From the NCBI GenBank assembly GCA_018900835.1, contig JAHIFQ010000015.1:50301-114300 (forward strand): a stretch of DNA of 64,000 nucleotides, read 5' to 3'. The notes under the pieces were generated by a model. That model was given only the letters and a program-made list of their open reading frames with translations. It did not search any database and was not told the origin of the DNA. Source of the stretch: Patescibacteria group bacterium. GTDB taxonomy: Bacteria; Patescibacteriota; Minisyncoccia; Minisyncoccales; PEYH01. Positions 4,594 through 60,107 of this stretch are shown here, one piece after another (position 1 is the stretch's first letter; the number at the start of each line of letters is the position of its first letter). The translations under genes were made by a program, and so were the position numbers.

Positions 4594-5367
4594 ATGTCTG
4601 ATTATTACAAAGCAAAAAGGGATTATAGGATTTTTAAGCCGGGACAGTCGGGAGCGTTTAAAGTGAGCCGTTCAAAAATTGGCTTATTTATGGAATGTCC
4701 AAGGTGTTTTTATATGGATTGTTGCTTGGGCGTAAGCCGTCCGCCGGGATTTCCTTTTACTCTAAACAGCGCAGTTGACAAGCTTTTGAAAAAAGAATTT
4801 GATGTCCATCGGATTGCCAAAACCAGCCATCCTTTAATGGAAGAATATGGGATTGACGCAGTGCCGTTTCAAGACAAGCGGATTGACGAGTGGCGGGATA
4901 CGAGGAGGGGGATTCAATATATCCACGAGCCGACAAATCTTTTGATAATGGGCGCAATTGATGATATCTGGGTTAATCCGCAGGGAGAACTGCATATTGT
5001 GGATTACAAGGCAACATCAAAAGCTGGAGAAATAACATTGGATGCAGAGTGGCAGATTGGGTATAAAAGACAGATGGAGGTCTATCAATGGCTTTTTAGA
5101 CGAAATGAATTTAGTGTTTCTGATACATCATATTTTGTTTATTGTAATGGGAAGACCGATACAGAGGCATTTGATAAAAAGATTGAGTTTGATATTTCAG
5201 TAATTCCATACAAAGGAGATGACGCTTGGGTAGAACAAGCTATTCATGATATTAAAGAATGCCTTGAAAAGGACGCGATTCCGGAAATGGCGTCTGATTG
5301 CGATTATTGCAGTTATAGAAAAGCAGCTGCTCAAGAAAGCTACAAGTTTTCAAAGAAAAATAAATGA
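4594..5367 (+). CDS. Cas4-like PD-(D/E)XK nuclease with Cys cluster (paralog A)
   Basis: N-terminal CPRCF..CC, motif II GAIDD, motif III IVDYK, QxxxY-like QIGYKRQMEVY, C-terminal CDYC. Confidence 0.55.
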   Translation: MSDYYKAKRDYRIFKPGQSGAFKVSRSKIGLFMECPRCFYMDCCLGVSRPPGFPFTLNSAVDKLLKKEFDVHRIAKTSHPLMEEYGIDAVPFQDKRIDEWRDTRRGIQYIHEPTNLLIMGAIDDIWVNPQGELHIVDYKATSKAGEITLDAEWQIGYKRQMEVYQWLFRRNEFSVSDTSYFVYCNGKTDTEAFDKKIEFDISVIPYKGDDAWVEQAIHDIKECLEKDAIPEMASDCDYCSYRKAAAQESYKFSKKNK

Positions 5368-6029
5368 TAAAGATTTCGCCTAATTCTTTGAATCTGTATT
5401 TTGAATGTCCGTTTTGTTTTTGGCTGGAAAAGAATAGGGGAATCAAAAGACCTGCGCCGTTTCCTTATGAGTTAAACTTGGCGGTTGACCAGGTTTTGAG
5501 GCGTGATTTTGACAAACATAGAGCAAAAGATAGAAAGCATCCTTTACTTGAAGCAAACAATATTCCTGCCAAGCTTTTTTCAAACCAAAAACTTTTGAAC
5601 GAATGGCGGAACAAGTCCAAGGGATTGGAATATTATGACGAAAAAACAGGGGCAGTCATTTTCGGAGTGCTTGATGATGTGTTGGATTTTGGGAAAGGGA
5701 AACTGGCGCCGTTTGATTATAAGTCAACAGGAAGCAGTGTGCCCAAGGTCTATGACAGGTTTCAGCTTCAGATGGATGTTTACACTTTTCTTTTGGAGAA
5801 GAACGGATACGCCACTCCAAGAAAAGGCGTTTTAGTATTTTATACTGTTGATAAGGACGATTCTTTTGATGACCGATTGCCGTTCAAAAAAGAGATTCAT
5901 ATTATTGATACTGACCCATCATATATTTTAAGAACATTCCGAGAAGCGATTAAGTTTTTGAAAAAACCTGCTCCATTGGCTCACAGCCCGGAATGCGAAT
6001 TCGGCAGGTGGGCCGAGCTTTTAAAATAA
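5364..6029 (+). CDS. Cas4-like PD-(D/E)XK nuclease (paralog B), overlaps paralog A by 4 nt
   Basis: CPFCF, RPAPFPYELNLAVD, GVLDDV, FDYKSTG, QLQMDVY. Clear paralog of 4594-5367. Confidence 0.55.
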   Translation: MIKISPNSLNLYFECPFCFWLEKNRGIKRPAPFPYELNLAVDQVLRRDFDKHRAKDRKHPLLEANNIPAKLFSNQKLLNEWRNKSKGLEYYDEKTGAVIFGVLDDVLDFGKGKLAPFDYKSTGSSVPKVYDRFQLQMDVYTFLLEKNGYATPRKGVLVFYTVDKDDSFDDRLPFKKEIHIIDTDPSYILRTFREAIKFLKKPAPLAHSPECEFGRWAELLK

Positions 6030-6043
6030 TCTTTAGAATCACA

Positions 6044-6070
6044 ATGTTTAGAGGTTCAACCTCTAAACAT
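6044..6070. repeat. Palindromic element family 2 (ATGTTTAGAGGTT-C-AACCTCTAAACAT), copy A
   Basis: Perfect 13+1+13 palindrome. Identical copies at 7433-7459 and 42206-42232. Confidence 0.85.
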
Positions 6071-6077
6071 CGAATGA

Positions 6078-6100
6078 TTTTGGAAACCAGGTTTCCAAAA
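6078..6100. repeat. Palindromic element family 3 (TTTTGGAAACC-A-GGTTTCCAAAA), adjacent to family-2 copy
   Basis: 11+1+11 palindrome. Second copy at 46657-46679. Confidence 0.8.
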
Positions 6101-6180
6101 TGGTGGTTTCCAGAATGGCAACAAAAACCATACTTGACACCATTTTTACCATTTTAATTATTTTAATTAAATATTAATAT

Positions 6181-7431: not shown

Positions 7432-7460
7432 AATGTTTAGAGGTTCAACCTCTAAACATT
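7432..7460. repeat. Palindromic element family 2, copy B (plus partial direct repeat CTCTAAACAT at 7464-7473)
   Basis: Identical to 6043-6070 core. Confidence 0.85.
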
Positions 7461-7474
7461 TTTCTCTAAACATC

Positions 7475-7640
7475 TCGAGTCAGAGAAGGGTCAGAGGGTG
7501 AATGCATAGCATCCACCCTCATTAACACGCGCGTTGCGCCGAAGCGCAATTCAAAAGAACGGTTGAGTCGGTCATGCCTCTCCAGGCAGTGGTAGATTGA
7601 GAAAAATAGGACAAAGGAGTTTAGGGTGAGGCAGGGGACC
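7475..7640. ncRNA. GC-rich structured intergenic element (candidate ncRNA / cis-regulatory leader), identity unknown
   Basis: ~55% GC island in a ~35% GC intergenic region. On the minus strand it carries GAGGGTG..CACCCTC and GCGC-UUCG-GCGC stem-loops. No ORF. Confidence 0.3.
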
Positions 7641-7757
7641 GATTCAATTATATTTTAACTTATCAACAACATCTGTCAAGCGGAATAATCCACAATAATG
7701 ACCAATATATCTTTTTAGGTCATTTTTTGTTAGAATAAAGGAAATAATATTGGAATT

Positions 7758-14109: not shown

Positions 14110-14294
14110 TTATGATAGGGAAGTAATTTGCGACTCACAATCAATATAGAGCACATTTTGCGATGTCAGGGCGCCATATTTTGCGACGTTTTAATGAATG
14201 TCGCAAAATATGGCGAACCTTAACGGACAAGCATTGTCCGTTAAGGTATATTGTGCGACAACCATATATCTATAATAATCCCTTATGATAGGGG
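14110..14294. repeat. Repeat cluster upstream of recombinase gene
   Basis: 16-bp inverted repeat CGCCATATTTTGCGAC / GTCGCAAAATATGGCG (14172-14215). 13+3+13 palindrome CCTTAACGGACAA-GCA-TTGTCCGTTAAGG (14218-14246). TTGCGA(C) direct repeats. TATGATAGGG direct repeats at 14111 and 14285. Confidence 0.7.
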
Positions 14295-17507: not shown

Positions 17508-18617
17508 TTAAAAATTATTTTTAGGTTGTTTTGATATATTCAACAACAAACCGATTGCTATTAGTTCCATTACTAAATGAGAGCTTCCATAACTCACTAA
17601 TGGCAACGGAATTCCTGTGAGTGGCAAAATTCCTATCATAGCGCCGATATTAATAAATGCTTGGAGTGTTATCCAAAATGTAATACCTATCGCTATAAGC
17701 TTAAAAAATATTTCCGAAGATTGTTTTGCTATTTTAAAACCCTGCCAAGCAAATATCAAAAATAATGATATTAATATGATGGCTCCAATAAATCCTGTTT
17801 CCTCTGCAAATACAGCGAATATACTGTCAGTCATTGGAGCAGGAAGAAATCCAGATTTTTGAACGCTCAATCCAAGTCCCTGCCCTATTATGCTGCCAGA
17901 GCCAATAGCTATAAGCGCTTGTTTCATTTGGTACCCGATTCCTAATGGTTGGGCGTCAGGCCGCAGGAAAACCAAGAGCCGATTTAGTCGGTATGGCGCG
18001 GTCTTGATTAATATAGCCAAGGCCCCGATTCCAGACAAAATCAGCAACCCGGTTTGCCAAAAAGGGGTTTCAGCGCTGAAGTACATTACCAATGTAATCG
18101 CTGCGATTGTGGCTAATGTGCTGATGTCCGGCTGTTTGATTAATAGAACGCAGACAACAGTTAAAATTATTATGAATGGCAAAAACAATTGGACCCTTTT
18201 TTTATTTTGCTCCTTATGCTTAGTGAGCCAGGCAGCAAGATAGACAATAAAGATTAATTTTAATAATTCGGACGGCTGAATCGTAATTGGTCCCAAGGAG
18301 ACCCAACGGTTTGCCCCGCCTATTGGTACGCCGATTTTTGGCACGAATACAAGCATCATTAATATTATCACCCCGAAGAGCGCTGGCAGGGATATTTTTC
18401 TTAATGACTTTAAATTGATTTTATACGCCAGGAAGCCCAGTATAAGTCCTGGAAAATATCCGTATTTTATTTGGTGCATCAGGTATTGGAAAGAATTTCC
18501 ATAAACTTTTTGAGATACTGTTAAGGAAACGCTGGCAAGAATCGCAAATCCTAAAATCAATAAAAGAGAGATAGTGAGCGAAAGTATTAGGTCGGGCTTG
18601 TTTTTTTGTTTTTTCAT
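17508..18617 (-). CDS. ftsW: SEDS-family peptidoglycan polymerase/flippase (FtsW/RodA)
   Basis: ~10 TM helices. dcw-cluster position between murD and murG. Confidence 0.75.
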   Translation of the reverse strand: MKKQKNKPDLILSLTISLLLILGFAILASVSLTVSQKVYGNSFQYLMHQIKYGYFPGLILGFLAYKINLKSLRKISLPALFGVIILMMLVFVPKIGVPIGGANRWVSLGPITIQPSELLKLIFIVYLAAWLTKHKEQNKKRVQLFLPFIIILTVVCVLLIKQPDISTLATIAAITLVMYFSAETPFWQTGLLILSGIGALAILIKTAPYRLNRLLVFLRPDAQPLGIGYQMKQALIAIGSGSIIGQGLGLSVQKSGFLPAPMTDSIFAVFAEETGFIGAIILISLFLIFAWQGFKIAKQSSEIFFKLIAIGITFWITLQAFINIGAMIGILPLTGIPLPLVSYGSSHLVMELIAIGLLLNISKQPKNNF

Positions 18618-19981
18618 TTAGCGAATTGCTTAACGAATTTTTGAAATTGGTCTCCCCTGTCTTTATAGTCCTTGAATATTCCAAAACTTGCGCAACCCGG
18701 AGACAGCGCGCAGATTCCTTTTCTGGCAGTATGTTGATAGCATGCCTTGACCGCATCTCTCATATTATCTACAAGAATAAATTTTGGTTTTTCATCTGTT
18801 TCACCCATTGTTTCCATAATGGCTTGCTTGATTCTCTTGCCTGCGGGCGGAAAAACAATAATTGTTTTAATGCGGTGTTTGATAATTATTTTGGCTAATG
18901 AAGAGAAATTCAGTCCCCTTTCATGGCCTCCCAATATAATGGTCTGTGGGTTGATGGCTTTTATAGCGCTTATGGCAGCGATTGGCTCGGTTGCAAAGCT
19001 GTCGTCATAAAAAATAATTTCTTTAAATTTTCCTATTTTCTGTAAACAATGCTTTTGAGTTCTGTAATCAGATATTGATTTTTTGATTTTTGAAAAAGGA
19101 ATATTAAATAAGCGGGCAGCGCATATTGCAGACATTATATCATATATGAAATGTTCTCCTTGCAGATGAATATCCTTCACTTTTGTAACCTTTTTTCCTT
19201 GATAAAATATTGCCTCTTGATTAAAATAGCAGTCGTTTGAATCATCTTTGCCAAAAGTGATTTTTCTGGCTTTGGTTTTTTCTGCTAAAGTTTTCAACCG
19301 AGGAGAATCAGAATTGAAAATAAAAAAATCGTTTTTTTTCTGCCAAAGGGTAATATTCTTTTTTGCCGCAAAGTATTCTTCGGTGTCTTTGTAATAATCT
19401 AAATGCCCCTCATGAATATTTAAAAATATTGCGATATATGGACTCACTTTTATATCCTCTAATTGATGAGAAGATATTTCAAAAATAAATGTTTTTTTGG
19501 ATTTTCCGTCTTTAAAATAGTTTAAAACCGGCTTCCCGATGTTCCCGATAAGCTCTGCCTCATGATTGCTTTCTTCAAAAATTTTATAAAGCAAGCTCAC
19601 AGTAGTGCCCTTGCCTTTTGTGGCGGTTACGCCGATAGTTTGTTTTGAATAATTTTGTAGAAAAATATCAGTTTGAGAGGCGATAGTTTGATTATTAGAA
19701 ATATATGGGGCGAATATTTTTCTAGAGATGCCCGGGGTTTTGATTATAACATCATAATCCCCTATTGATTTCAAATAATTATTCCCTAAATGCAGCTTTG
19801 TATTCTCATCTTTCTTGATTTTTCTTTTCAGAGTTTTTGATAATTCTCTAAACTCTAATTTATCTGCTAAGCCAATAATTTTATCAGGAAAAATTTTCCG
19901 TAGAAACTTAAAACTTGACTCTCCTTCTCGGCCAAGCCCTAAAATCAGAATTTTTTTGTTTTCAAGCTGTGTTAGCTTCAT
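18614..19981 (-). CDS. murD: UDP-N-acetylmuramoylalanine--glutamate ligase
   Basis: ILGLGREGES N-terminus, GVTATKGKGTT P-loop. Mur ligase architecture. Confidence 0.8.
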   Translation of the reverse strand: MKLTQLENKKILILGLGREGESSFKFLRKIFPDKIIGLADKLEFRELSKTLKRKIKKDENTKLHLGNNYLKSIGDYDVIIKTPGISRKIFAPYISNNQTIASQTDIFLQNYSKQTIGVTATKGKGTTVSLLYKIFEESNHEAELIGNIGKPVLNYFKDGKSKKTFIFEISSHQLEDIKVSPYIAIFLNIHEGHLDYYKDTEEYFAAKKNITLWQKKNDFFIFNSDSPRLKTLAEKTKARKITFGKDDSNDCYFNQEAIFYQGKKVTKVKDIHLQGEHFIYDIMSAICAARLFNIPFSKIKKSISDYRTQKHCLQKIGKFKEIIFYDDSFATEPIAAISAIKAINPQTIILGGHERGLNFSSLAKIIIKHRIKTIIVFPPAGKRIKQAIMETMGETDEKPKFILVDNMRDAVKACYQHTARKGICALSPGCASFGIFKDYKDRGDQFQKFVKQFAK

Positions 19982-21234
19982 CTCTTTATTGTTTCGCTTA
20001 TTTTTTTCAGAACAATAGGTAGGTTGTGCCTTTCTTTTTCAATACAGGACTTAATTATTTTCTTTGATTCAGAGATTGTTCCCACGCATTCAAATGGCTT
20101 AAACGCTTTTTCCCCAATCAATTGCTCCATCAATGGGACAAGCTTTTTGTCTTCAAAAAGGTTTTTTCCAAATATTTTTATCATGTCTTTTTTTTCCACA
20201 AAAGCATAAAGAGCGCTGAACACAAATAGGCATTTTGCGCACTTCCCGCACCATCTCTTGGATGCGTTTTTTGTTTTATACGCATTATTGCAACTTAAAA
20301 AAAATGGGTGATATTGTTTTAATCCAGCAAATTTTTTGATAATCTCTATTTCTGACAACTTCCTCAATGGGCTGTAAATCTTAATATTTTTCAAAAGATA
20401 TTTTTTAGCGTAATTTTGCATCATTTTTTCAAATTCAGATGACTTTGACCATTGATGGTTTATCCATTTGCCTTGGTATTTTACATTTCCTTCGTCAGCG
20501 CTTTTTTCCCATGAAAAAGCAATAGTCCCGTAGTCAAATATTTCCGCCAAAAGGATAGACAAGAAAGAAAGAAACGCTGAAAAAGGCACATGGCCATTTA
20601 AGAGCCCTTTCTTGTTAAGGGCGAAGAGCTTGCTATCTAACTTTCTTTCAATAAAAATATTTTCTTTAAGCCGAGCGATTCTTATAATATCTTTTTGCGG
20701 TTTAATAGCATTGAGGACAAATGAGCCAATATTCTTTTTTTGTTTGTCAAGCATTTTTAGCGTTACTGGAGCGTCTTTTCCCCCGCCAATAGGAACCAGA
20801 ACCCTTTTATTATTCAGCTTTTTCTCTAATGGTTTGAATTGTGGTTTGTTTTTATTTACTATTATTTCTAAAAATTTTGGTTTTCTGAAATCAATTTTAT
20901 TTTCATAAAAATACTGGCCCATTCCATTGATAATGATTCTTTTTAAAAAAGTAATCTGTTGTTTATCAAGATTGCCTGCCTCAATCTTTATTATCGGAGA
21001 GCAGGTCAATTTCCAATAATTGAGCATTTCAATCAATCCAAGATGGAATACTAAATTATCAATATCTTTGAGTTCTGATTTCTCAATGTTCTTGATTATG
21101 ATTTCTGTCGTAAATTTCAAATCCGGGTTAATTGAAAAATTAAACCAGATTTTCAAATCTGTTCCGACTGTTTTATAGTCAAATCCCTTATAAACAAATT
21201 CTTTATGCTTTTTTTGGATTTCTCCGGCGTTCAT
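19978..21234 (-). CDS. Unknown PP-loop-like ATPase-fold protein with C-terminal Cys motif, translationally coupled to murD (candidate MurL-like glycopeptidyl-glutamate epimerase)
   Basis: VPIGGGKDAP (degenerate SGGxDS PP-loop), C-terminal CGKCAKC. 4-nt overlap with murD start inside the dcw cluster. Confidence 0.3.
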   Translation of the reverse strand: MNAGEIQKKHKEFVYKGFDYKTVGTDLKIWFNFSINPDLKFTTEIIIKNIEKSELKDIDNLVFHLGLIEMLNYWKLTCSPIIKIEAGNLDKQQITFLKRIIINGMGQYFYENKIDFRKPKFLEIIVNKNKPQFKPLEKKLNNKRVLVPIGGGKDAPVTLKMLDKQKKNIGSFVLNAIKPQKDIIRIARLKENIFIERKLDSKLFALNKKGLLNGHVPFSAFLSFLSILLAEIFDYGTIAFSWEKSADEGNVKYQGKWINHQWSKSSEFEKMMQNYAKKYLLKNIKIYSPLRKLSEIEIIKKFAGLKQYHPFFLSCNNAYKTKNASKRWCGKCAKCLFVFSALYAFVEKKDMIKIFGKNLFEDKKLVPLMEQLIGEKAFKPFECVGTISESKKIIKSCIEKERHNLPIVLKKISETIKR

Positions 21235-22833: not shown

Positions 22834-23840
22834 ACGAAAGCAGTATTAATCCAATTAATAATATTTTCCATATCCTTGAATCGGTCGCTTGACCCTAATA
22901 CTATATTTATAACATGCCCACCATTTTTCGGTTGAGGCATTATCACTAACAGGCATTGCCCGGCAATTGGAGTTTGCCCTGTTTTGGCTCCGAATGTATT
23001 GGGGAATTCGCTAAGTAATTTATTGGTGCTTATCGCTTCATGATGAACCCGTCCGTTAGCAAGAGTAATTGGGTATTTTGGGTTTCTAGTAATCTCAAAT
23101 ATTCTTGCTATCTCGGGATTCGTATCTGCTTCTTGAAGAATATGTCTTACCATCATTGCTAAATCATTCGCAGTTGAATAATTATATCCTCCTCCAAAAA
23201 AATCAGGGTCCAGACCAATCGGGTCTATAAAATGAGTGTATTTCAAGCCGATTTCCTTAACTTTTTTATTCATAAGATTGACAAACTGTTGTTCTCCCAT
23301 AATTTCTGCTAAAGCTCTGGCAGCATCGTTGCTTGATTCAATAAGAATTGAGTGAAGCAATTGGTCAACAGTGAATTTTTCACCCACCCAGAATCCGCCA
23401 ATAATTTCTTCAGTGTCAACAGCTCTTTGGGATATAACAACCTCTTGGTCAAGCTCATAATTCTGCAGAACAATATAGGCAGTGAGCAGTTTAGTCAAGC
23501 TGGCGATTGGCATTATTTCGTCAGGCGACTTATCAAATATCATTCGTGGGCTCCCAGAATCAGTCACTAAACTTATGGCTGATTTGGCTTTCAGTCCCTC
23601 CAATTCTCCTGTTTTCCAATTCCTAAACGGTTTTAAAAAAGAATAATCCACTGGCGCGCTCACCACGGCAGCAGTATAAATATCTTTCGTTTTTTTCCAA
23701 TAAAGATATTCATTGGCAATTTTTCCCAAAGCAATACTCCCTGAAATTGAGGCGAGCAATAATCCTCCTGCCACAATATTTTTGGTTTTTGGTAGGTTAA
23801 ACTTAAATTTTGCCTTTGGATACCAGGTTTCCAAATTCAT
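22827..23840 (-). CDS. D-alanyl-D-alanine carboxypeptidase (S11, PBP5-like)
   Basis: SxxK (ASLTK), SxN (SSND), KTG (AKTGQT) active-site triad motifs. Confidence 0.75.
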   Translation of the reverse strand: MNLETWYPKAKFKFNLPKTKNIVAGGLLLASISGSIALGKIANEYLYWKKTKDIYTAAVVSAPVDYSFLKPFRNWKTGELEGLKAKSAISLVTDSGSPRMIFDKSPDEIMPIASLTKLLTAYIVLQNYELDQEVVISQRAVDTEEIIGGFWVGEKFTVDQLLHSILIESSNDAARALAEIMGEQQFVNLMNKKVKEIGLKYTHFIDPIGLDPDFFGGGYNYSTANDLAMMVRHILQEADTNPEIARIFEITRNPKYPITLANGRVHHEAISTNKLLSEFPNTFGAKTGQTPIAGQCLLVIMPQPKNGGHVINIVLGSSDRFKDMENIINWINTAFVW

Positions 23841-32101: not shown

Positions 32102-32144
32102 AATCCTTATATTTATTCATAATCCTTTTTGCTTTTTTCTATTT

Positions 32145-32167
32145 CCGCCGAGATCGTTTCTCGGCGG
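32145..32167. repeat. REP palindrome (family 1: GCCGAGA-TCGTT-TCTCGGC), copy flanking RAYT 3' side
   Basis: CCGCCGAGATCGTTTCTCGGCGG. Same element at 32701-32719, 32928-32946 (reverse orientation) and 58837-58855. Confidence 0.85.
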
Positions 32168-32184
32168 ATTTCAGTTAGATTCTC

Positions 32185-32904
32185 CTATTCTATTACTACC
32201 TCTTCAAAATCAACTAATTCTTTTTTAAACTTAAGCCAATTATTAACAAATTCTCGGCAACCATCTGCACCTTCCATTATTTTCTCTAAAAATTCCCTAT
32301 TTGTCAAAGAAGGGAAATTTTTCTTTCCTAAATAATCTGGATAACTTGACCATTTATATTTATTTTCTAAAAAATCAATTGCCGCATCTATGTTTTCTAT
32401 TTGCACTCCTTTGTTTTTCCATTCCAGAATTATTAATGACATTGGATTTGTGTGTATATAAACAAACACAGTTTCTAATCGCTCTTCTGTCTCGATACGA
32501 ACTATCCTGTATCTTCCTTGAAAAAGATGTCCATTCCTCTCATATTTTTTATTATAGTAACCACTATAACCTGCTCCAATCTTATGCATTAATTTGCTGA
32601 TTCCGTTATCGCAAGTTTGTTTTATTAACAAATGAATATGATTTGGCATTAGGCAAAATGCCAAAATTTCTACCAAAAGTTTCCTTTTCTTTCTATTCTC
32701 GCCGAGATCGTTTCTCGGCAGAGATAGCGGAGATAAGTTTCTTCTATAATCTCTGGATACTGGATTTTCGTCGTTAAATTCAAAAAGGTTGTTTATCATT
32801 CGAAAATAATCTTTATCGCCACGAAAAAGGTCTATCCCCTCTATTGTTCGGGTGACGATATGATATATTTCTCCATTTACTATTTCAGGTCTTTTTGATG
32901 GCAT
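32185..32904 (-). mobile_element. REP-associated tyrosine transposase (RAYT; IS200/IS605 TnpA Y1 HuH family)
   Basis: HuH motif LMPNHIHLLI and catalytic Tyr region YSGYYNKKYERNGHLFQGRY. Flanked by REP palindromes. Carries one REP in-frame (LPRNDLGE). Confidence 0.75.
32701..32719. repeat. REP family 1 copy inside RAYT coding sequence (in-frame)
   Basis: GCCGAGATCGTTTCTCGGC. Confidence 0.85.
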
Positions 32905-32919
32905 TCATCTATTATTGAT

Positions 32920-35334
32920 TCAATCTTGCCGAGAAACGATCTCGGCAGATTGTTTTTTATCTTTTAAGCTTATCAGTGTTTTGACCACAGCGTCAGGGCT
33001 TAAAGACATTGATTCAATCCCCTCTTTTGCCAAAAATTCCGCGAAATCAGGAAATGTAGACGGCGCTTCTCCGCAAATGCCCACATATTTTTTCCTTGCC
33101 AAACATTTTTTTATCACTATTTTCAATGACTCCTTCACTGCCTCGTTTCTCTCGTCAGCAATATGCGCAATTTGGGCATTGTCCCTATCTATTCCCATTG
33201 TAAGCTGGGTCAAATCATTGGACCCAATGCTCATTCCGTCAAAAATATCCAAAAACTTATCAGCTAAAATTACATTAGACGGAATTTCACACATCACATA
33301 TATTTTCAATCCGTCCTTTTCTTGCTTAAGACCGAATTTCTTCATCAACTCAATTACCCTTGCTCCTTCTTCTGGAGTTCGGCAAAAAGGAACCATCACT
33401 GAAACATTTTTTAATCCGAATATATCTCTTACTCTTTTGATTGCTTCGCATTCCATTCCAAATGCAGGCGCATATTTTTCGTCATAATACCGCGAAGCGC
33501 CTCTCCAGCCAATCATTGGATTTTCTTCTATTGGCTCGTACTCTTTACCACCTATCAATTGAGCATACTCGTTTGTTTTAAAATCAGAAAATCTAACTAT
33601 CGCTTCTTGCGGATAAAAAGCAGCTGCAATTTGAGCAATGCCTTCTGCCAACTCCTTTACAAAATATTCCTTTTTGTCCTTATGCTCTACGGTTAATTCT
33701 TCAATTTGCTTTTTTAATTTTCCATCCCTTATTTTATTGAAATTATATAGCGCCATTGGGTGACATTTTATTTTCTGTGCGATAATAAATTCTTCTCGCG
33801 CCAAACCAACTCCATTTACTGGCAAAAAAGATGTCTTGAAAGCTAATTCTGGCGCTCCGATGTTGACGCTAATTTTTATTTTCGTTTTAGGCACTTTTTT
33901 AAGATTGTATACTTTGACTTCATAAGGAATCTTGCCAGCATAAATCCTGCCATTTAATCCTTGGGTGCAGTCAATTGTTATGTATTGTCCGTTCTTTAAA
34001 ATCTTAGTAGCTTTTTCTGTTCCCACAATACAAGGTATTCCTAATTCTCTGCTTACTATCGCTGCGTGTGCGGTCTTAGAGCCCTCGTCTGTTACAATTG
34101 CTGATGCCATTTGCATAACTGGAACCCAATCAGGGTCTGTCATCTTAGTAACCAGAATTTCTCCTTTCTTAAATTCGCTCATCTTCTTTACATCAGAAAC
34201 AATCCGCACTTTTCCTTCGCCGATTTTATCTCCAATAGCAATACCCTTGAGTATTGGCTCTACTTTGGCATGAATTGAATATTCTGTGTATGTTGTTTTC
34301 GTTTCCGAGCGATGAACTGTTTCTGGCCTTGATTGGACAATAAAAAGTTTTCCTGTTTTTCCATCTTTCGCCCATTCCAAATCCTGTGGCATCCATTTTT
34401 TATTTAACCCGGAATAATAATCTTCAATCGTGCATGCCCATTTCGCCAAAGTAACAATATCATTATCAGATAAAGAAAATTTTAATTGCTCTTCCTTTTT
34501 TACAGGAATTTCTTTTAGTCCGCCATTAACACTATAAATTAGTTTCTTCGTTTTCCTGCCAAGATTTTTGACAATTATGGATTTGTATCCTTCTTTGAGA
34601 GTTGGCTTGAAAACGAAAAATTCGTCAGGAGTTATTTGTCCTTTTACAATCATTTCTCCCACTCCCCAGATAGAATTAATTAATACCACATTAGGAAATC
34701 CTGTTTCCGTGTCCAATGTGAACATTACACCTGAAGAGCCGATTCCGGAATTGACCATTTTCTGCACACCAACGGATAAGGCAATCTGCAAATGGTCAAA
34801 ACCCTTCTCCTGCCTGTAAGCAATTGCTCTGTCTGTGAAAAGCGATGAAATACATTTTTTGACTGCTCTTAAAACCTCTTGTTCTCCTTTAATATTTAAA
34901 TATGTTTCCTGCTGACCAGCAAAACTGGCTGTTGGCAAGTCCTCTGCAGTTGCAGAGCTTCGCACAGCAACAACAACATCTTTCTCTTTGTATATTTGGC
35001 AGAGTTTTCTGTAATACTTAATAATCTTCCTTTCCAATTTTTTGGGGAGTTCCGCTCCTAAAATCAATTCCCGAGATTTCTTGCCAGTTTCCTGCAAGCT
35101 CTTGATATTATTGGGTTTAAAGTTTTTGAAAACTTTTTTTAATTGGTCATAAACGCCGGTCTCTTTTAAAAAGAGAAAATAGGCATGAGAGGTGAGCGCA
35201 AACCCATTCGGAATATTTATTCCTTCAGGAACCAAATGTCTAAACATTTCTCCAAGAGAAGCATTTTTTCCTCCGACTAAAGGAACATCCTTGATTCCAA
35301 CATTTTTAAACCAAACAATATATTTTTTAAGCAT
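32920..35334 (-). CDS. ppsA: Phosphoenolpyruvate synthase (PEP-utilising enzyme)
   Basis: N-terminal VGGKNASLGEM, phospho-His region TSHAAIVSRELGIPCIVG, C-terminal PEP-utilisers TIM barrel. 804 aa. Confidence 0.8.
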   Translation of the reverse strand: MLKKYIVWFKNVGIKDVPLVGGKNASLGEMFRHLVPEGINIPNGFALTSHAYFLFLKETGVYDQLKKVFKNFKPNNIKSLQETGKKSRELILGAELPKKLERKIIKYYRKLCQIYKEKDVVVAVRSSATAEDLPTASFAGQQETYLNIKGEQEVLRAVKKCISSLFTDRAIAYRQEKGFDHLQIALSVGVQKMVNSGIGSSGVMFTLDTETGFPNVVLINSIWGVGEMIVKGQITPDEFFVFKPTLKEGYKSIIVKNLGRKTKKLIYSVNGGLKEIPVKKEEQLKFSLSDNDIVTLAKWACTIEDYYSGLNKKWMPQDLEWAKDGKTGKLFIVQSRPETVHRSETKTTYTEYSIHAKVEPILKGIAIGDKIGEGKVRIVSDVKKMSEFKKGEILVTKMTDPDWVPVMQMASAIVTDEGSKTAHAAIVSRELGIPCIVGTEKATKILKNGQYITIDCTQGLNGRIYAGKIPYEVKVYNLKKVPKTKIKISVNIGAPELAFKTSFLPVNGVGLAREEFIIAQKIKCHPMALYNFNKIRDGKLKKQIEELTVEHKDKKEYFVKELAEGIAQIAAAFYPQEAIVRFSDFKTNEYAQLIGGKEYEPIEENPMIGWRGASRYYDEKYAPAFGMECEAIKRVRDIFGLKNVSVMVPFCRTPEEGARVIELMKKFGLKQEKDGLKIYVMCEIPSNVILADKFLDIFDGMSIGSNDLTQLTMGIDRDNAQIAHIADERNEAVKESLKIVIKKCLARKKYVGICGEAPSTFPDFAEFLAKEGIESMSLSPDAVVKTLISLKDKKQSAEIVSRQD
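32928..32946. repeat. REP family 1 copy (reverse orientation) forming the last codons of ppsA (…SAEIVSRQD*)
   Basis: GCCGAGAAACGATCTCGGC. ppsA stop codon lies 6 nt beyond. Confidence 0.85.
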
Positions 35335-38590: not shown

Positions 38591-38639
38591 GGGCGTTTTT
38601 ACGAGACCCGGCCTCATCAACGAGGCCGGGTCTCGTTGA

Positions 38640-40772: not shown

Positions 40773-41408
40773 TTATTCTATTATTACATCGTCAACGGAA
40801 TAAAGAAATTGAGAACTGTCAATCATCAGATTATATATGTCTATATACTGATTGTCTAAAAGCGTAATTTCTAAATAGCCGTTTTCCACGGGCACAATGA
40901 CATCTGTAATGATATCCCCTGCCTTGAATCCCATAGACGCATCGCGGAGATATTCTGTTTTATACTGCGGAACTTCTACCTCTAAATCGCCGACCATAAT
41001 TTTGTCTAAAACAACATTTTTGTCCTCATCTGTCTTGCGAAAAGGAACAATAATTTCCTCATATTGCTGAATTGTCCGGAAATTAATAGCAAACATCAAA
41101 TCCTTTGCCATAGTAATACTACAATCATTGGCCTTCAGGGCTTCAACTTTTTCCTTGGGTCCGAACACTATGGTCTTGGCGCATTTATCATTTGCCCAGA
41201 TTTCAGGATACTTTATTTCATACCCATACTCTTCATTGGTATATGTCTGCCAATTTGTAATATCTTCTACTATTGGCGCTGGTGTTGGATTTGGTGATAG
41301 AGTTTCTCCCTCTGGCCAAAACTGCCAAATTAAGAAAGCTGTAACAATAATTCCGAAAACAAAGACAAGATACAAAATGTTTTTACTTTTCATTTTCTTT
41401 TTCTTCAA
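40773..41408 (-). CDS. Membrane-anchored hypothetical protein, paralog of 42590-43231
   Basis: WQFW TM anchor, Pro/Thr linker, TNEEYGYEIKYPEIW motif shared with the paralog. Confidence 0.45.
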   Translation of the reverse strand: MKKKKMKSKNILYLVFVFGIIVTAFLIWQFWPEGETLSPNPTPAPIVEDITNWQTYTNEEYGYEIKYPEIWANDKCAKTIVFGPKEKVEALKANDCSITMAKDLMFAINFRTIQQYEEIIVPFRKTDEDKNVVLDKIMVGDLEVEVPQYKTEYLRDASMGFKAGDIITDVIVPVENGYLEITLLDNQYIDIYNLMIDSSQFLYSVDDVIIE

Positions 41409-42609
41409 TTAATAATAATCTATTATACTTTGCCAGTCGTTCAGGCATAACTGGCGCGCCTGATTTAATGAAATCAGCGCCAACCCCGATTGCAAAGTCA
41501 GCAATGAAATCATCCATTGTTTCTCCTGAACGATGAGAAACCATTATTTTCCATTGATGCGCTTTTGCCAATTTTATTGCCTCTATTGCTTCGCTAACTG
41601 TTCCTATTTGATTTACTTTAATAATTACTCCGTTGCAAGCTGTTTTTTCAATCGCTTCTTGTATTCTCAATGGATTTGTGACCAATAAATCATCCCCGAT
41701 AATTGTCATCTTACTCCCCATCTTATTATAAATCCCTTGAAATCCCTGCCAATCATCTTCTGCAAAAGGATCTTCAAAACCAATAATAGGATATTTTACA
41801 ATCAAATTATTATAAAATTCAAGCAATGCGCTTCTGCTGAAAGGCAGGCCTTCAAGCTGATAATTTTCTCCATCTTGGAAATGAGTGGCAGCACAATCAA
41901 GAAGAAATCCAACTTCTTTTTTATTAAACCCAGCTTTAACCACCGCTTCTTGCAAAAAATCCAATGCTTCAATAGTAGAGGGAATCATCGGAGCAAATCC
42001 TCCTTCATCCCCTATCGGAAGTTTATCAAACTTCCTGCTTAAAATTCCTTTTAGTGATTGATAAATATCTTTTGCTGACTGAAAATTTTCTGAAAAACTA
42101 TTCATTTGGGGAACAATCATAAACTCTTGAATATCTAAATCATTATTAGCGTGAGCTCCCCCATTGATGATATTAAAACAAGCTAAAGGCATCTTAAAAT
42201 TTTCAATGTTTAGAGGTTCAACCTCTAAACATTGGGAGATGTGTTTGTAGAGAGGGATGTTTTTAGTTTGAGCGCCGAGCTTGGAAATTGCCATTGAGAC
42301 CCCGACAATTGCGTTGCCACCAAGCACCGATTTATCAGCTGTTCCATCAATCTCAAGCATTAAATTATCTATTTCTTTTTGATTTGTTGGGTCCTTGCCA
42401 ATTAATTGCGGGGCAATGATTTCATTTACATTTTTAATCGCTTTTGGAACATCTATGACTTTTGCTTCCAGCTTACCAGTGGAAGCGCCAGAAGGAACCC
42501 CTGCTTTAACAGAAAAATCAGAGGTTTCTGCTATAACCTCTATTGTCGGATTCTTTCGCGAATCCAATATTATCTGCGCTGTAATTGATTTAATCTTCAC
42601 CATTTTCAT
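41383..42609 (-). CDS. eno: Enolase, carrying an in-frame palindromic-element insertion
   Basis: SITAQIILDSRKNPTIEV N-terminus, NIINGGAHA, KVNQIGTVSEAIEA. Likely start MVKIKSI. Confidence 0.85.
   Translation of the reverse strand: MKMVKIKSITAQIILDSRKNPTIEVIAETSDFSVKAGVPSGASTGKLEAKVIDVPKAIKNVNEIIAPQLIGKDPTNQKEIDNLMLEIDGTADKSVLGGNAIVGVSMAISKLGAQTKNIPLYKHISQCLEVEPLNIENFKMPLACFNIINGGAHANNDLDIQEFMIVPQMNSFSENFQSAKDIYQSLKGILSRKFDKLPIGDEGGFAPMIPSTIEALDFLQEAVVKAGFNKKEVGFLLDCAATHFQDGENYQLEGLPFSRSALLEFYNNLIVKYPIIGFEDPFAEDDWQGFQGIYNKMGSKMTIIGDDLLVTNPLRIQEAIEKTACNGVIIKVNQIGTVSEAIEAIKLAKAHQWKIMVSHRSGETMDDFIADFAIGVGADFIKSGAPVMPERLAKYNRLLLIEEKENEK
42204..42234. repeat. Palindromic element family 2, copy C, in-frame inside eno (encodes ~QCLEVEPLNIE)
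   Basis: CAATGTTTAGAGGTTCAACCTCTAAACATTG (15+1+15). Confidence 0.85.
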
Positions 42610-46553: not shown

Positions 46554-46656
46554 TTATTTGGACATTTATTTGGATTTTGGGATTTGAAATTTCTATCTTC
46601 AATTTAACCCTAAAAATCAATTCAGTCAATGTTGTAGGCCAATTCGAGAAACCCAT

Positions 46657-46679
46657 TTTGGAAACCTGGTTTCCAAAAG
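46657..46679. repeat. Palindromic element family 3 copy (with degenerate family-2 remnant CAATGTTGTAGG at 46627-46638)
   Basis: TTTTGGAAACC-T-GGTTTCCAAAA. Confidence 0.75.
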
Positions 46680-46682
46680 ATA

Positions 46683-47927
46683 TTAAATAAGGACTTTTTG
46701 CTTGATGAGATTCTTTTTTTCCAGTTCAGAGAAAATTCTGACTTTTCCGAACACGCCATCATAACCCGGTTCAATATTCACCCTTCCTTGTCTTGCCCTT
46801 ATTATTCCTTCGGCGATATGAATTGAAGCAATGTTTTCCAAATCGCTTTGCTCAACATTAAGCAGGATATTAAATTCATTTTTAAACTCGTTTATCAGTT
46901 TGTCATATTCAATAACAACTTTCTTCGCGCTTACTCCGCAACCAAGGGCTTCAGCAATAACCTCTTTCAGTGGAATCAAGCTCTTGAATGGGACAGCTCC
47001 TTTAGGAATGAATCCTTCTTCTTTGTCAGATAGTTTGCTTATCCGGTTCACAACCCCAAGAGTAAGTGGCTTTCCGCAGACAGGGCAAACATTATTGTAT
47101 TTTTTTGATTCTATTGGGGACAAAGAAATTTCGCAAGCCCTATGCCCGTCATAATGGTATTTTCCCTCTTCAGGGAAAAACTCAATGGTGTAGAGAAATT
47201 TTTTAGGGTCCTTGGATTTAATCGCTTCAATAATTCCGGCATAACTCAAATCCGTGTCAAAAACATTTGCCTCTCTGCCTAATTTTTCCGGCGAATGAGC
47301 GTCAGAATTTGAAATCAAAGCCACTCGCCTGCCATCAGGAATCCTCCATATCATTGAAGGGTCAGCAGACAGGCCTGTTTCTAAGGCGAAAATGTATTTA
47401 GAATAATCGTCAAAACATTCTTCTATTGAATCAAATCCTGATTTTGAGCCAAAAATAGCAAACCACGGAGTCATACAATGAGCTGGCACAAAAAGGCAAT
47501 TCTCATCCGCTTCCAATACAATTTTTAAAAGTTCTTTTGAATTTAATCCCAAAATAGGCCTTCCATCTGAATGAATATTTCCTATTTTTGAAAGCGTCTT
47601 ATTGATCTTCTCAACTGCTTCCAGCGAAGGAGCAAAAATAATATTATGGACTTTTCGCACCTTTTCCTTATATGAATAAATACAGCTTATTTCCGAACTT
47701 AATAAAAAACGAATCTCATCTTGAGATTTTTTTAACTTAAACAGACCTTGCTCTGCTGGTTCTAATTTTTCTTCAATTTCTTTAATCCATTCAGGATGAG
47801 TAAAGTCCCCTGTGCCAACAACCCGTATCCCCTTAATTTTAGCTGATTCAGCAATATGCTCTAAATCCGCGCTTGGAGAAGTGGCGCGAGAGTATTTTGA
47901 GTGGATATGGAGGTCAGCTATAAACAT
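46683..47927 (-). CDS. PHP-domain metal-dependent phosphoesterase, endonuclease Q-like (TIGR00375-like) with C-terminal Cys cluster
   Basis: MFIADLHIHSKYSRATS PHP motif I. C-terminal NNVCPVCGKPL. Confidence 0.4.
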   Translation of the reverse strand: MFIADLHIHSKYSRATSPSADLEHIAESAKIKGIRVVGTGDFTHPEWIKEIEEKLEPAEQGLFKLKKSQDEIRFLLSSEISCIYSYKEKVRKVHNIIFAPSLEAVEKINKTLSKIGNIHSDGRPILGLNSKELLKIVLEADENCLFVPAHCMTPWFAIFGSKSGFDSIEECFDDYSKYIFALETGLSADPSMIWRIPDGRRVALISNSDAHSPEKLGREANVFDTDLSYAGIIEAIKSKDPKKFLYTIEFFPEEGKYHYDGHRACEISLSPIESKKYNNVCPVCGKPLTLGVVNRISKLSDKEEGFIPKGAVPFKSLIPLKEVIAEALGCGVSAKKVVIEYDKLINEFKNEFNILLNVEQSDLENIASIHIAEGIIRARQGRVNIEPGYDGVFGKVRIFSELEKKNLIKQKVLI

Positions 47928-50173: not shown

Positions 50174-50202
50174 AAAATTACGAGGCCAGGCCTCGTAATT
50201 TT
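50174..50202. terminator. 14+1+14 perfect palindrome AAAATTACGAGGCC-A-GGCCTCGTAATTTT, terminator of upstream operon
   Basis: Immediately 3' of the stop of 50208-50831. A/T runs on both sides. Confidence 0.6.
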
Positions 50203-58020: not shown

Positions 58021-59220
58021 TTAAATTCTTTTGCTTTTTATTTTATCCCTTATCCCCTCAAGCTTGGTTTCCAAAAAGAAAAGATTGTGTATTGTTAAAA
58101 GTTTTCCAGCCAACATCTCTTTTGCCCTGAAAAGGAAATTAATTTGGGCGATTGTATATTTTTGGCAAACAGGACATTCACAGTTCTTGTCAATTGGTTC
58201 AAACTTATTCTTCAGCTTTCCAGCATCAAGATTCAAATATCCTTTTGAAGTCATTGCTGTACCGTGCCTTGCAATTCTGGTTGGTAAGGCGCAATCAAAT
58301 AAATCAATTCCCAATTTGACAATTTCTTCCAAAACATCCAAGTCCCCTATGCCCAAAAGATGATGAGGTCTCTGCCAGTCAATGTCCTCATTGACCCATG
58401 ATATTGTTTTGTACATATCTTTTTTGCTTTTGCCCAATGCTCCGCCAATAGCAATTCCGAAAACAGGCAAATCATTTACAAATTTGGTTGATTGTTCGCG
58501 TAAGTCCTTAAAAACTCCGCCCTGAATAATACCAAAAATCTGTTGATTAGATTTATTGCCTCCCACGCCTGAGTTGGAAGCTGTTTTTAAAAACCTTTTA
58601 AACCATTGATGGCTTATTTCCATTTCTTTTTCCGCTTCTTTACGGCTATCCATTGGACTGCCACAAACATCTAAAAGATAAATAAAATCAGCCCCCAATT
58701 GCTTTTGAATTTTAAAAGAAAGTTCTGGCGTAAGCAAAATTTCCCTTCCATCTCTTGGGGATTTAAACCTTGCTCCTCTCTGGCTGATTTTCAAAAGATT
58801 TTTTCCTTTTTTGCGTAAAGCAGAATTTTCTTTCTGCCGAGAAACGATCTCGGCGGATTTTTCTTGAGGAAAAATAGAACCGATTTTCCCCAAACCAAAC
58901 TCGCTTCCTTTGCCTAAAGAAAAAACCTGAAAACCGCCGGAATCAGTAAAAATCGGTTTATCAAAATTAAAAAATTTGTGGAGCCCGCCAATCTGCTCAA
59001 CCTCGTTCGCCCTATCCAAGTCTAAAAAATGGAATGTATTAGTAATTTGGCATTGGGCTTTTGTTTGCTGTGTTTCCCCTGAACTCAAACCGCCTTTAAT
59101 CACGCCCAAAGTTGCCACTGGAATAAATGCTGGTGTTTTTATCTTGCCGTGGGGCGTAATAATCTCTCCAATCCGCGCCCTGCTCTTTTTTGATTTCTCC
59201 TGTATTTCAAATTTGAACAT
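58021..59220 (-). CDS. tgt: Queuine tRNA-ribosyltransferase, with in-frame REP insertion
   Basis: TPHGKIKTPAFIPVAT, DSGGFQVFSLG, LLGIGDLD, zinc site CECPVCQ. ~30-aa insertion containing SAEIVSRQ. Confidence 0.8.
   Translation of the reverse strand: MFKFEIQEKSKKSRARIGEIITPHGKIKTPAFIPVATLGVIKGGLSSGETQQTKAQCQITNTFHFLDLDRANEVEQIGGLHKFFNFDKPIFTDSGGFQVFSLGKGSEFGLGKIGSIFPQEKSAEIVSRQKENSALRKKGKNLLKISQRGARFKSPRDGREILLTPELSFKIQKQLGADFIYLLDVCGSPMDSRKEAEKEMEISHQWFKRFLKTASNSGVGGNKSNQQIFGIIQGGVFKDLREQSTKFVNDLPVFGIAIGGALGKSKKDMYKTISWVNEDIDWQRPHHLLGIGDLDVLEEIVKLGIDLFDCALPTRIARHGTAMTSKGYLNLDAGKLKNKFEPIDKNCECPVCQKYTIAQINFLFRAKEMLAGKLLTIHNLFFLETKLEGIRDKIKSKRI
58837..58855. repeat. REP family 1 copy in-frame inside tgt
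   Basis: GCCGAGAAACGATCTCGGC encodes AEIVSRQ on the minus strand. Confidence 0.85.
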
Positions 59221-59480: not shown

Positions 59481-59487
59481 TTTATCT

Positions 59488-59520
59488 GAATTTCTTTTTT
59501 TCTAAATCTCTGACTTCTTT
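59488..59520. repeat. 33-bp direct repeat, copy 1 (duplicate of the last 11 codons of metalloprotease gene 59730-60107)
   Basis: GAATTTCTTTTTTTCTAAATCTCTGACTTCTTT, identical to 59746-59778. Followed by CAT (relic start codon on minus strand). Confidence 0.85.
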
Positions 59521-59587
59521 CTTAAACATTTTTTAAATGTGGATAACTGTTATTGACAAAAAACTGATTAATGATAAGGTATAAATA

Positions 59588-59729: not shown

Positions 59730-60107
59730 TTATTTGAATTTCTTTTTTTCTAAATCTCTGACTTCTTTTTCACTCATCCCGAAATGGTGGGCAATCTCGT
59801 GCCAAACAGTTCGCTTAACTTTTTCTTTTATTTCCTCTGGGGTTTTGGCAACTGTTTCAATACTACCCTGAAACAATGTAATCTTATCAGGCAAGACATT
59901 AGCGTAAAATGCTCCTCTTTTGGTTTGCGGAATACCCTGATACAAACCGAAAAGCAAACCGCCTGTTGGCACTCTCGCCTGCCTTAACTGCTCTGGAGAT
60001 GGCCAGTCCTCAACCAAAATATCCACATTTTTCATTTTGTCTCTGAATTTCTCTGGAATTTCCGCTATCCCCTGCCTCACTAATTCTTCAAAATCTTCCT
60101 GCCTCAT
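59730..60107 (-). CDS. Minimal zinc metallopeptidase (Zincin_1/DUF1025-like, HExxH)
   Basis: C-terminal HEIAHHFGM. ~125 aa. Confidence 0.55.
   Translation of the reverse strand: MRQEDFEELVRQGIAEIPEKFRDKMKNVDILVEDWPSPEQLRQARVPTGGLLFGLYQGIPQTKRGAFYANVLPDKITLFQGSIETVAKTPEEIKEKVKRTVWHEIAHHFGMSEKEVRDLEKKKFK
59746..59778. repeat. 33-bp direct repeat, copy 2 (genuine 3' end of metalloprotease CDS)
   Basis: Identical to 59488-59520. Confidence 0.85.

Follow-up and report, generated by a model that had tools for sequence, protein, structure and literature searches.

The stretch of DNA described here (the window, 64,000 nucleotides of contig JAHIFQ010000015.1 from a Patescibacteria group bacterium) carries two families of short perfect palindromes, A and B, and a third palindrome, C, that both flanks and occupies a gene for a Y1/HuH transposase. 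We call the palindromes REPs (repetitive extragenic palindromes) and the transposases RAYTs (REP-associated tyrosine transposases). Palindrome A, AATGTTTAGAGGTTCAACCTCTAAACAT, matches exactly, at 6043-6070, 7432-7459 and 42205-42232, within the three loci named in the initial annotation, and the perfect palindrome extends over 6044-6070 (27 nt, stem 13), 7432-7460 (29 nt, stem 14) and 42204-42234 (31 nt, stem 15), the last being the complete 31-nt consensus CAATG...CATTG. Palindrome B, TTTTGGAAACC-N-GGTTTCCAAAA, has exact copies at 6078-6100, as annotated, and at 46656-46678, one base away from the annotated 46657-46679; both are perfect palindromes of 23-25 nt, and the T at the centre of the second indicates that it is inverted. 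Another B copy, with 3 mismatches, is at 23814-23836. One hundred dinucleotide-preserving shuffles of the window gave no match for A, and shuffles of this kind gave none for B; in all, the 64 kb hold three copies of A, two of B plus the decayed one, and four of C, versus none in shuffles. The copies and the transposase open reading frame (ORF) are as follows.

6043..6070: REP A copy 1, intergenic, 14 nt past the stop (6027-6029) of a PD-(D/E)XK-like ORF (5364-6029); exact 28-mer, 13-bp stem
6078..6118, plus strand: REP B copy 1; palindrome 6078-6100 and a tail with a third half-site, GGTTTCCAGAA (6105-6115)
7432..7473: REP A copy 2, intergenic; palindrome 7432-7460, then an extra half-site, CTCTAAACAT (7464-7473)
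23814..23836: decayed REP B, 3 mismatches, 10 nt 3' of the aspS stop
32144..32168: REP C (TCCGCCGAGA-TCGTT-TCTCGGCGGA), 3' flank of the window RAYT
32185..32904, minus strand: gene for the RAYT-like Y1/HuH transposase of the window (239 aa), which belongs to one protein family with the A- and B-carrying RAYTs
32698..32722, minus strand: internal REP C, in-frame in the window RAYT, peptide LSLPRNDLGE
32927..32951: inverted REP C, 5' flank of the window RAYT; encodes the C-terminus ..QSAEIVSRQD (then stop) of a PEP-utilising enzyme ORF (32920-35334)
42204..42234, minus strand: REP A copy 3, in-frame in the enolase ORF 41383-42603; encodes QCLEVEPLNI(E)
46639..46678, minus strand: REP B copy 2; palindrome 46656-46678 and a tail with the half-site-like GGTTTCTCGAA (46643-46653, minus strand)
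58833..58857, minus strand: REP C, in-frame in the tRNA-guanine transglycosylase ORF (tgt, PF01702; 58021-59220), peptide KSAEIVSRQKE

Each A or B unit is a single AT-rich perfect hairpin of 23-31 nt, with a stem of 11-15 bp and an effective loop of 1-3 nt. Single-strand folding gives z-scores of -3.7 to -6.7 for the A and B copies, and the region 6036-6108, which contains one of each, folds into two separate hairpins (-19.5 kcal/mol, z = -6.7). Perfect hairpins with stems of at least 9 bp number 18 in the window versus 2.25 in shuffles. The two exact B copies have a tail in common (TGG..GGTTTC[CT].GAA), and 26 nt of the first copy are 100% complementary to 46653-46678; extra half-sites are frequent beside A and B copies at other loci as well. 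The intergenic copies lie 5-14 nt past stop codons and 5' of the next promoter-like site, REP B copy 2 being placed between the stop of ORF 46683-47927 and a promoter-like site of ftsZ. This placement matches that of REPs in general, which usually sit just 3' of genes, and the intergenic copies may affect the stability of mRNA 3' ends. A terminator scan found no intrinsic terminator at either intergenic locus examined, no T-run follows the stems, and an Rfam scan of the whole window returned tRNA only, with no match for the palindromes.

Transposase genes flanked and occupied by the hairpins

The 23-nt core of A was found as an exact match in 30 stretches from about 15 Patescibacteria metagenome-assembled genomes (labelled Parcubacteria, Vogelbacteria, 'Saccharibacteria' and, in one case, Nanoarchaeota), and B is present in 50 metagenome stretches. 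From 47 distinct copies, the consensus unit of A is CAAT-GTTTAGAGGTT-S-AACCTCTAAAC-ATTG, in which outer pair 3 co-varies (A:T in 19 copies, C:G in 8), and the flanks beyond outer pair 4 show neither complementarity nor conservation. Both palindromes are absent from the viral contigs searched, which speaks against a phage origin.

In six loci from other genomes (L005, L007, L011, L015, L019 and L020), A copies flank ORFs of 230-250 aa that are homologous to the window RAYT (phmmer, E 2e-46 to 2e-60), and each of these ORFs contains a further in-frame A copy that encodes QCLEVQPLNI. The two flanking copies have opposite centre bases, and are thus inverted, in L005, L011, L015, L019 and L020, while L007 has A as 5' flank and internal copy only. 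An A-type RAYT is also held by three of the four genomes that are represented by at least three A-bearing stretches. B likewise flanks homologs of the window RAYT in L058, L067, L074 and L079, inverted in all but L074, where the centre base is the same on both sides. The internal B copy encodes FGN[QL]VSK in L052, L058, L067, L070 and L079 and has decayed to FGDLVSK in L074. For the A- and B-flanked genes together, the E-values against the window RAYT range from 1e-26 to 1e-60. The window RAYT has the same arrangement with REP C, whose internal copy occupies the site that A and B occupy in their own RAYTs. Further trios are formed by AATCTTACGAGGTT-W-AACCTCGTAAGATT in L085 (at 9944, 10173 and 10704, the second intragenic) and by TCAACAATCGGAAG..CTTCCGATTGTTGA in L086 (at 531, 775 and 1313, the second again intragenic), and L075 has CCCCAAGGC-N-GCCTTGGGG as internal and 3' copy. 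In L066 the hairpins are on the flanks, with no internal copy and a shorter linker. At the DNA level, an in-frame self-copy inside the transposase gene is present for six palindrome types.

One A-bearing stretch, L005 (JAUYPG010000062.1), is binned as Nanoarchaeota and has the A-type RAYT together with three exact A copies; it is either a mis-binned Patescibacteria contig or the product of a transfer between two groups of ultra-small cells. In L083, the hairpin type that flanks the L066 RAYT (TGTTAGGGTGCGACCCTAACA) is found at 5650-5670, directly after the enolase stop; the enolase of this genome also carries REP A, so one genome holds at least two families.

The internal copies always lie in the linker between the first helix and the HuH-bearing strand, and the peptides encoded there are unrelated between families (QCLEVQPLNI, FGNQVSK, LSLPRNDLGE, YEVKPRK). 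In nucleotide sequence, the REP is the best-conserved part of the six A-type RAYT genes, with an identity of 0.99, a value partly biased by ascertainment as the loci were retrieved through the motif, compared with 0.60 overall and 0.42-0.48 directly beside the REP. This pattern indicates that selection at the RAYT site acts on the DNA and not on the encoded peptide. The internal copy of L019 forms a 26-bp stem, with an extra arm that is complementary to the conserved basic-motif codons on the other side.

The window protein matches Pfam Y1_Tnp (PF01797) with 51.8 bits against a cut-off of 23, its best NCBIfam match is REP_Tyr_transpos (49 bits), and the HuH histidines H89/H91 and Y149, the tyrosine of a Y-I-H-x-N motif, are invariant. 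An AlphaFold2 (AF2) model (pLDDT, the predicted local confidence, 74) was compared with known structures by Foldseek, and the top match was 4ER8 (E 1.7e-5, TM-score 0.65 on the target), the structure of TnpArep, the REP-associated tyrosine transposase of E. coli, in complex with a REP hairpin; the next matches were the TnpA proteins of ISDra2 and IS608. The REP-encoded residues 56-68 form a loop in the model with pLDDT below 50. By sequence, phmmer found no meaningful match among the PDB sequences, and the alignment profile gave only weak ones (2XM3, E 0.005; 4ER8, E 0.83). The proteins are RAYT-like, a label we use because the fold and the arrangement of gene plus hairpins are shared while the sequence diverges. 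The family is large: an A-type query gives 5440 matches at E <= 1e-10, and the window RAYT gives 4772 representative clusters at this threshold.

The self-embedded hairpin was also followed at the protein level, with a scan written to give, for each protein position, the longest perfect hairpin that its codons could encode. In 72 of the 119 scorable closest homologs of the A-type RAYT, the best site is 10-32 aa upstream of HuH, an interval that makes up about 9% of the protein length, and stems of at least 15 bp are possible in 51 of the 119 versus 8 of 120 shuffled sequences. The scan has a high background, in that stems of 14-17 bp are possible by chance in enolase, SufS and shuffled RAYTs; only positional enrichment and stems of at least 17 bp were used from it. 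In a more diverse set of 121 RAYT representatives, 28 have their best site in the linker, where about 12 are expected by chance, indicating that the internal copy is common but not universal. The linker peptides can be sorted into classes, which correspond to the translations of related palindromes; several are compensatory variants of A: CLEVGPPNI corresponds to TGTTTGGAGGTC-G-GACCTCCAAACA, CLEVQLLNI to the change GAAG..CTTC, and SYEVQPRKI to TTACGAGGTT-C-AACCTCGTAA.

In-frame copies in enolase, SufS and other genes

The third A copy of the window lies in an intact enolase ORF (41383-42603, minus strand, 406 aa) whose product is 100% identical to the public Patescibacteria protein P0001. As initially annotated, it is read in-frame as QCLEVEPLNIE just before NIINGGAHA. 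The peptide ends 10 residues upstream of this segment, in a stretch covered by neither of the two Pfam matches (Enolase_N and Enolase_C). Of the 13 closest orthologs (67-84% identity), 9 have QCLEVEPLNI or a variant, but many enolase orthologs are without the peptide, close ones such as P0004-P0007, P0015 and P0019 among them, and have an unrelated or shorter sequence at this position; enolases with the REP are 3-5 aa longer than those without. At the nucleotide level, the REP is identical to that of L084 at 30 of 30 positions and to that of L083 at 29 of 30, whereas outside the REP the third codon positions have an identity of 0.48 and 0.46, respectively, and all 10 REP codons are identical where the identical-codon frequency elsewhere in the gene is 0.54. 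The L092 enolase has TATTTGGAGGTT-G-AACCTCCAAATA in the same codons, which differs by two compensatory double changes and keeps a perfect 12-bp stem. The REP has decayed in the enolases of L082 and L091, and in that of L081 an unrelated 21-nt segment replaces the 24-nt REP core; this segment is unique among 84 loci and unstructured, which speaks against another repeat. In more distant enolases, palindrome-compatible peptides occur at the same position; these enolases make up 13 of the 21 proteins in which stems of at least 17 bp are possible. The enolase copy is old, being common to orthologs down to 67% identity, and is maintained as a hairpin at the DNA level.

Enolase is not the only gene that is occupied in this way. 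A is in-frame in genes for UDP-GlcNAc 2-epimerase (L001), RecJ (L008), SufS (L026) and a large protein (L013), and at least 12 of about 50 A copies are within genes. In the alanine racemase gene of another genome (L030), A is read in its second open frame, as MFRGSTSKH, which supports an element rather than an enolase motif. B is found in several long ORFs, including one gene common to L048, L051, L056 and L073. The hairpins are free of stops in two of the three frames in both orientations (the third frame of A has TAG both ways) and can therefore persist in-frame in the surface loops of proteins, such as enolase. For annotation, this means that QCLEV[QE]PLNI, MFRGSTSKH and FGN.VSK, where they recur in unrelated proteins, are to be read as translated repeats and not as motifs.

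The SufS gene shows two hairpin types at one position. L026 carries A, and the SufS of L087, 79% identical, has another perfect palindrome, ATATAGTGAGGTT-G-AACCTCACTATAT, in the identical codon register. About 55 other SufS orthologs read L.E[IV]P--G[VI]K and are two residues shorter, and the REP-less SufS gene of L088 has TCC GAG GTC CCT GGA at the place of the REP. On the basis of these alignments, the REP looks like a replacement of a similar native segment, with a hairpin type that differs between lineages. Simple insertion leaves the pattern unexplained, and it is the starting point for two of the readings weighed below, the rewriting of fixed slots and template switching.

Interpretation and alternatives

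We consider it likely, with a probability of roughly 80%, that A and B are independent REP-type families, each with its own RAYT-like transposase elsewhere, and that enolase holds an in-frame copy. In genomes with a complete system, it consists of a RAYT-like HuH/Y1 gene flanked on both sides by the hairpin of its family, usually with an in-frame copy shortly before the HuH strand. To judge from the homologous TnpArep of E. coli and TnpA of IS200/IS605, the transposase would recognise the hairpin on single-stranded DNA, and it would cut and rejoin beside the hairpin, so that copies could spread and become homogeneous in trans. The evidence supports the initial proposal of REP-like hairpin repeats, mobile or maintained, and the claim that A and B are distinct from the REP at the window RAYT holds for their sequence; in kind they are not distinct, as both have RAYTs of the same family elsewhere.

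Several observations weigh against this reading. Mobility is read from sequence comparison, with no event seen directly, and the loci were found by exact 23-nt or 21-nt patterns, which biases the collection towards intact copies. The coding copies look like replacements (SufS +2 aa, enolase +3-5 aa), which is unexpected under classical peel-and-paste transposition. An A- or B-specific RAYT is absent from the window, as initially noted, and likewise from a further 18.7 kb of the contig (9.3 and 9.4 kb beyond the window ends), which also hold no further copies; the region examined is thus 82.7 kb of a 169-kb metagenomic contig, with the window at record positions about 84354-148353. The A and B copies here may be orphans, and their specific RAYTs, if this genome still encodes them, would be situated outside the 82.7 kb. 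In addition, the RAYTs score 20-49 bits on NCBIfam REP_Tyr_transpos and do not reach the equivalog cut-off of 80, and the alignment spans only profile positions 41-136, the N-terminal part being separated by the hairpin-bearing linker. The GTAG/GTGG guide tetranucleotide located 0-2 nt 5' of the hairpin foot, a hallmark of the Proteobacterial REP (PMC6006769, PMC3733652), is absent from the feet of the A, B and C hairpins. Close inverted REP doublets (REPINs) were not seen for A: its copies are single, and the only pairs are those on either side of RAYT genes or at a distance of 670-780 nt. Some B copies lie side by side or in tandem.

Functionally, the elements belong with REP-RAYT systems. 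As in the REP/REPIN-RAYT systems of Proteobacteria (E. coli TnpArep, Pseudomonas), the hairpins are short, dispersed and mostly just 3' of genes, a Y1/HuH gene lies between its own inverted hairpins, and several families exist, each with its own transposase. They depart from the described systems in five respects, namely sequence class, single-hairpin units, host phylum, frequent in-frame residence and the self-embedded hairpin. Unlike Proteobacterial REPs, they have AT-rich stems, reside in Patescibacteria and consist of single hairpins instead of REPIN doublets; at least a quarter of the copies sit in-frame in genes, contrary to the extragenic location expected of a REP. Canonical RAYTs have 165 aa, whereas the proteins here have about 240, with a C-terminal extension and a long linker that holds the in-frame self-hairpin. 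Also related is the IS200/IS605 group (IS608, ISDra2), whose Y1 HuH transposase is matched by structure and profile and recognises subterminal hairpins on single-stranded DNA. Unlike in IS200/IS605, the repeats here spread apart from the gene, the gene occurs at most once per stretch examined, and no conserved tetranucleotide target was identified.

Intragenic REPs have been published, of GTAG or CGTC type and in other phyla, including the Rickettsia palindromic elements RPE-4 and RPE-6 as CGTC REPs (Di Nocera et al. 2013, PMC3733652). The present copies resemble them in lying in-frame in conserved genes, DNA repair genes among them, that are not destroyed. They differ from Rickettsia RPE-1 (100-150 bp, with no known transposase) in being 23-31 nt long, linked to a transposase and located in Patescibacteria, and are not of the RPE-1 class. 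PMC3733652 reports neither a REP inside a RAYT gene nor orthologous slots with a lineage-changing hairpin type, and our literature search found no report of REP-RAYT systems in the Candidate Phyla Radiation, of a REP inside a RAYT gene or of rewritten slots. REP-RAYT systems provide the best example of replicators that persist for long in bacterial genomes and are inherited vertically, and the matching of hairpin and transposase specificity is poorly understood. A transposase gene with its recognition hairpin embedded in-frame offers direct access to the co-evolution of the two, and possibly to autoregulation, and slots in housekeeping genes with a lineage-dependent hairpin type would do likewise. 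With these findings, REP-RAYT biology also takes in the Patescibacteria, ultra-small cells whose gene-dense chromosomes leave little room between genes and in which protein loops seem to be used as landing sites.

A tentative extension, which we regard as possible but rather doubtful, is that in this Patescibacteria clade the hairpin has a so far undescribed property and occupies fixed in-frame slots, each of which is rewritten to the hairpin type that the genome currently maintains. Such slots are seen in the linker before the RAYT HuH strand, in the inter-domain linker of enolase and in one SufS loop. If this is the case, the transposase would either carry out a replacement that is targeted by the hairpin or excise and reinsert repeatedly at a single site, and through the copy within its gene it could sense or regulate that gene. 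Persistent slots of this kind would result from excision that is seamless and reinsertion that is site-specific, in the manner of IS200/IS605.

It is improbable that the hairpins are instead functional sites of the host, such as stabilisers of mRNA 3' ends, terminators or sites for nucleoid or regulatory proteins, kept identical by selection for that role rather than by a transposase, with the RAYT link being secondary. The position of the intergenic copies, 5-14 nt past stops and before the next promoter, would suit such a role, as would the DNA-level conservation and compensatory changes at orthologous sites, which show that the hairpin is maintained, and secondary roles of this kind are described for Proteobacteria REPs (PMC3733652). 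However, the missing T-runs, the negative terminator scan and the lack of an Rfam match argue against it, as does the intragenic location of 12 or more of the roughly 50 A copies. A different RAYT goes with each of at least five unrelated palindrome types, and a regulator site is not expected to flank and occupy a transposase gene in every family.

We also consider it unlikely that the hairpins spread and are kept up independently of a transposase, the palindromes being made, perfected and overwritten by template switching at hairpins (quasipalindrome correction) and by copying from locus to locus through microhomology. This would account for the replacement-like occupancy with little net length change, and the native SufS codons GAG GTC CCT already resemble the GAGGTT..CCT centre of the REPs. 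The 26-bp internal stem of L019 with its arm complementing the basic-motif codons, the compensatory double changes and the extra half-sites flanking many copies point in the same direction. It leaves unexplained, however, why each palindrome type flanks a different RAYT gene and why the same 23-31 nt recur within one genome and across distant genomes. Template switching could act alongside the RAYT and need not replace it.

The initial annotation had joined A and B into one composite unit of about 60 nt, a mini-element of the MITE (miniature inverted-repeat transposable element) type that would move as a unit. The spacing of only 7 nt between the two at 6043-6100 is in its favour, but such a unit is very improbable. 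B is absent from all 30 A-bearing genome stretches, the window being the sole stretch with both among 32 A-bearing and 51 B-bearing ones, and A and B are each paired with their own RAYT. The supposed second composite (46627-46678) consists of B and native sequence: the string taken for a degenerate A remnant (CAATGTTGTAGG, 46627-46638) is present, but it aligns with ..ACA[A/G]CATTGAC.. in L081 and L082, both without B, and partly coincides with TTGACT-17-TAAATT, a conserved promoter-like site in front of ftsZ. REP B copy 2 is absent from the same spacer in these relatives, compared with which it is an insertion of about 40 nt (palindrome plus half-site tail). Different REP types cluster in spacers anyway, as does B beside a third type in L047, and the MITE label does not fit a single hairpin of at most 31 nt with no terminal inverted repeats around an internal segment and no target-site duplication.

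That QCLEVEPLNIE is a functional enolase peptide, its nucleotide identity to the intergenic copies being secondary, is scarcely credible, since the occurrence of the peptide or variants in 9 of 13 orthologs is outweighed by the same 28 nt being intergenic at two window sites, by the same DNA encoding loops of unrelated proteins, by the orthologs without the peptide and by a codon identity far above synonymous expectation.

Other features of the window and its relatives

The window contains further lone perfect hairpins. One at 50174-50202 (AAAATTACGAGGCC-A-GGCCTCGTAATTTT) would be translated as YEA.PR, resembling the linker motif SYEA[KS]PRKI of the RAYT homologs P0184 and P0205; it is of the type that adjoins B in L047 and probably represents a further REP family by a single copy. 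Those at 1730-1748 (AATGCGCCT-T-AGGCGCATT), 14217-14247 (14-bp stem, ACCTTAACGGACAA..) and 38601-38636 (GC-rich 15-bp stem, ACGAGACCCGGCCTC..) may be lone REPs of other families or terminators. The 300-nt spacer 3' of REP A copy 2 (7461-7757) is rich in hairpins (GAGGGTG..CACCCTC, TTGCGC-CGAA-GCGCAA) and has no ORF and no Rfam match. Directly 5' of the spacer with A and B, two adjacent and overlapping paralogs of the PF12705 PD-(D/E)XK type occupy 4594-5367 and 5364-6029. A 48-nt direct repeat (59482-59529 and 59730-59777) is 90% identical between its copies, which are 248 nt apart. In syntenic relatives, inteins (Intein_splicing, LAGLIDADG_3) are found in the PEP-utilising enzyme (L081) and in a UvrD-like helicase (L081, L082), at 18019-21215 and 1-1064 of L081 and 1-1176 of L082; the PEP-utilising enzyme ORF of the window, with 804 aa, is too short for an intein.

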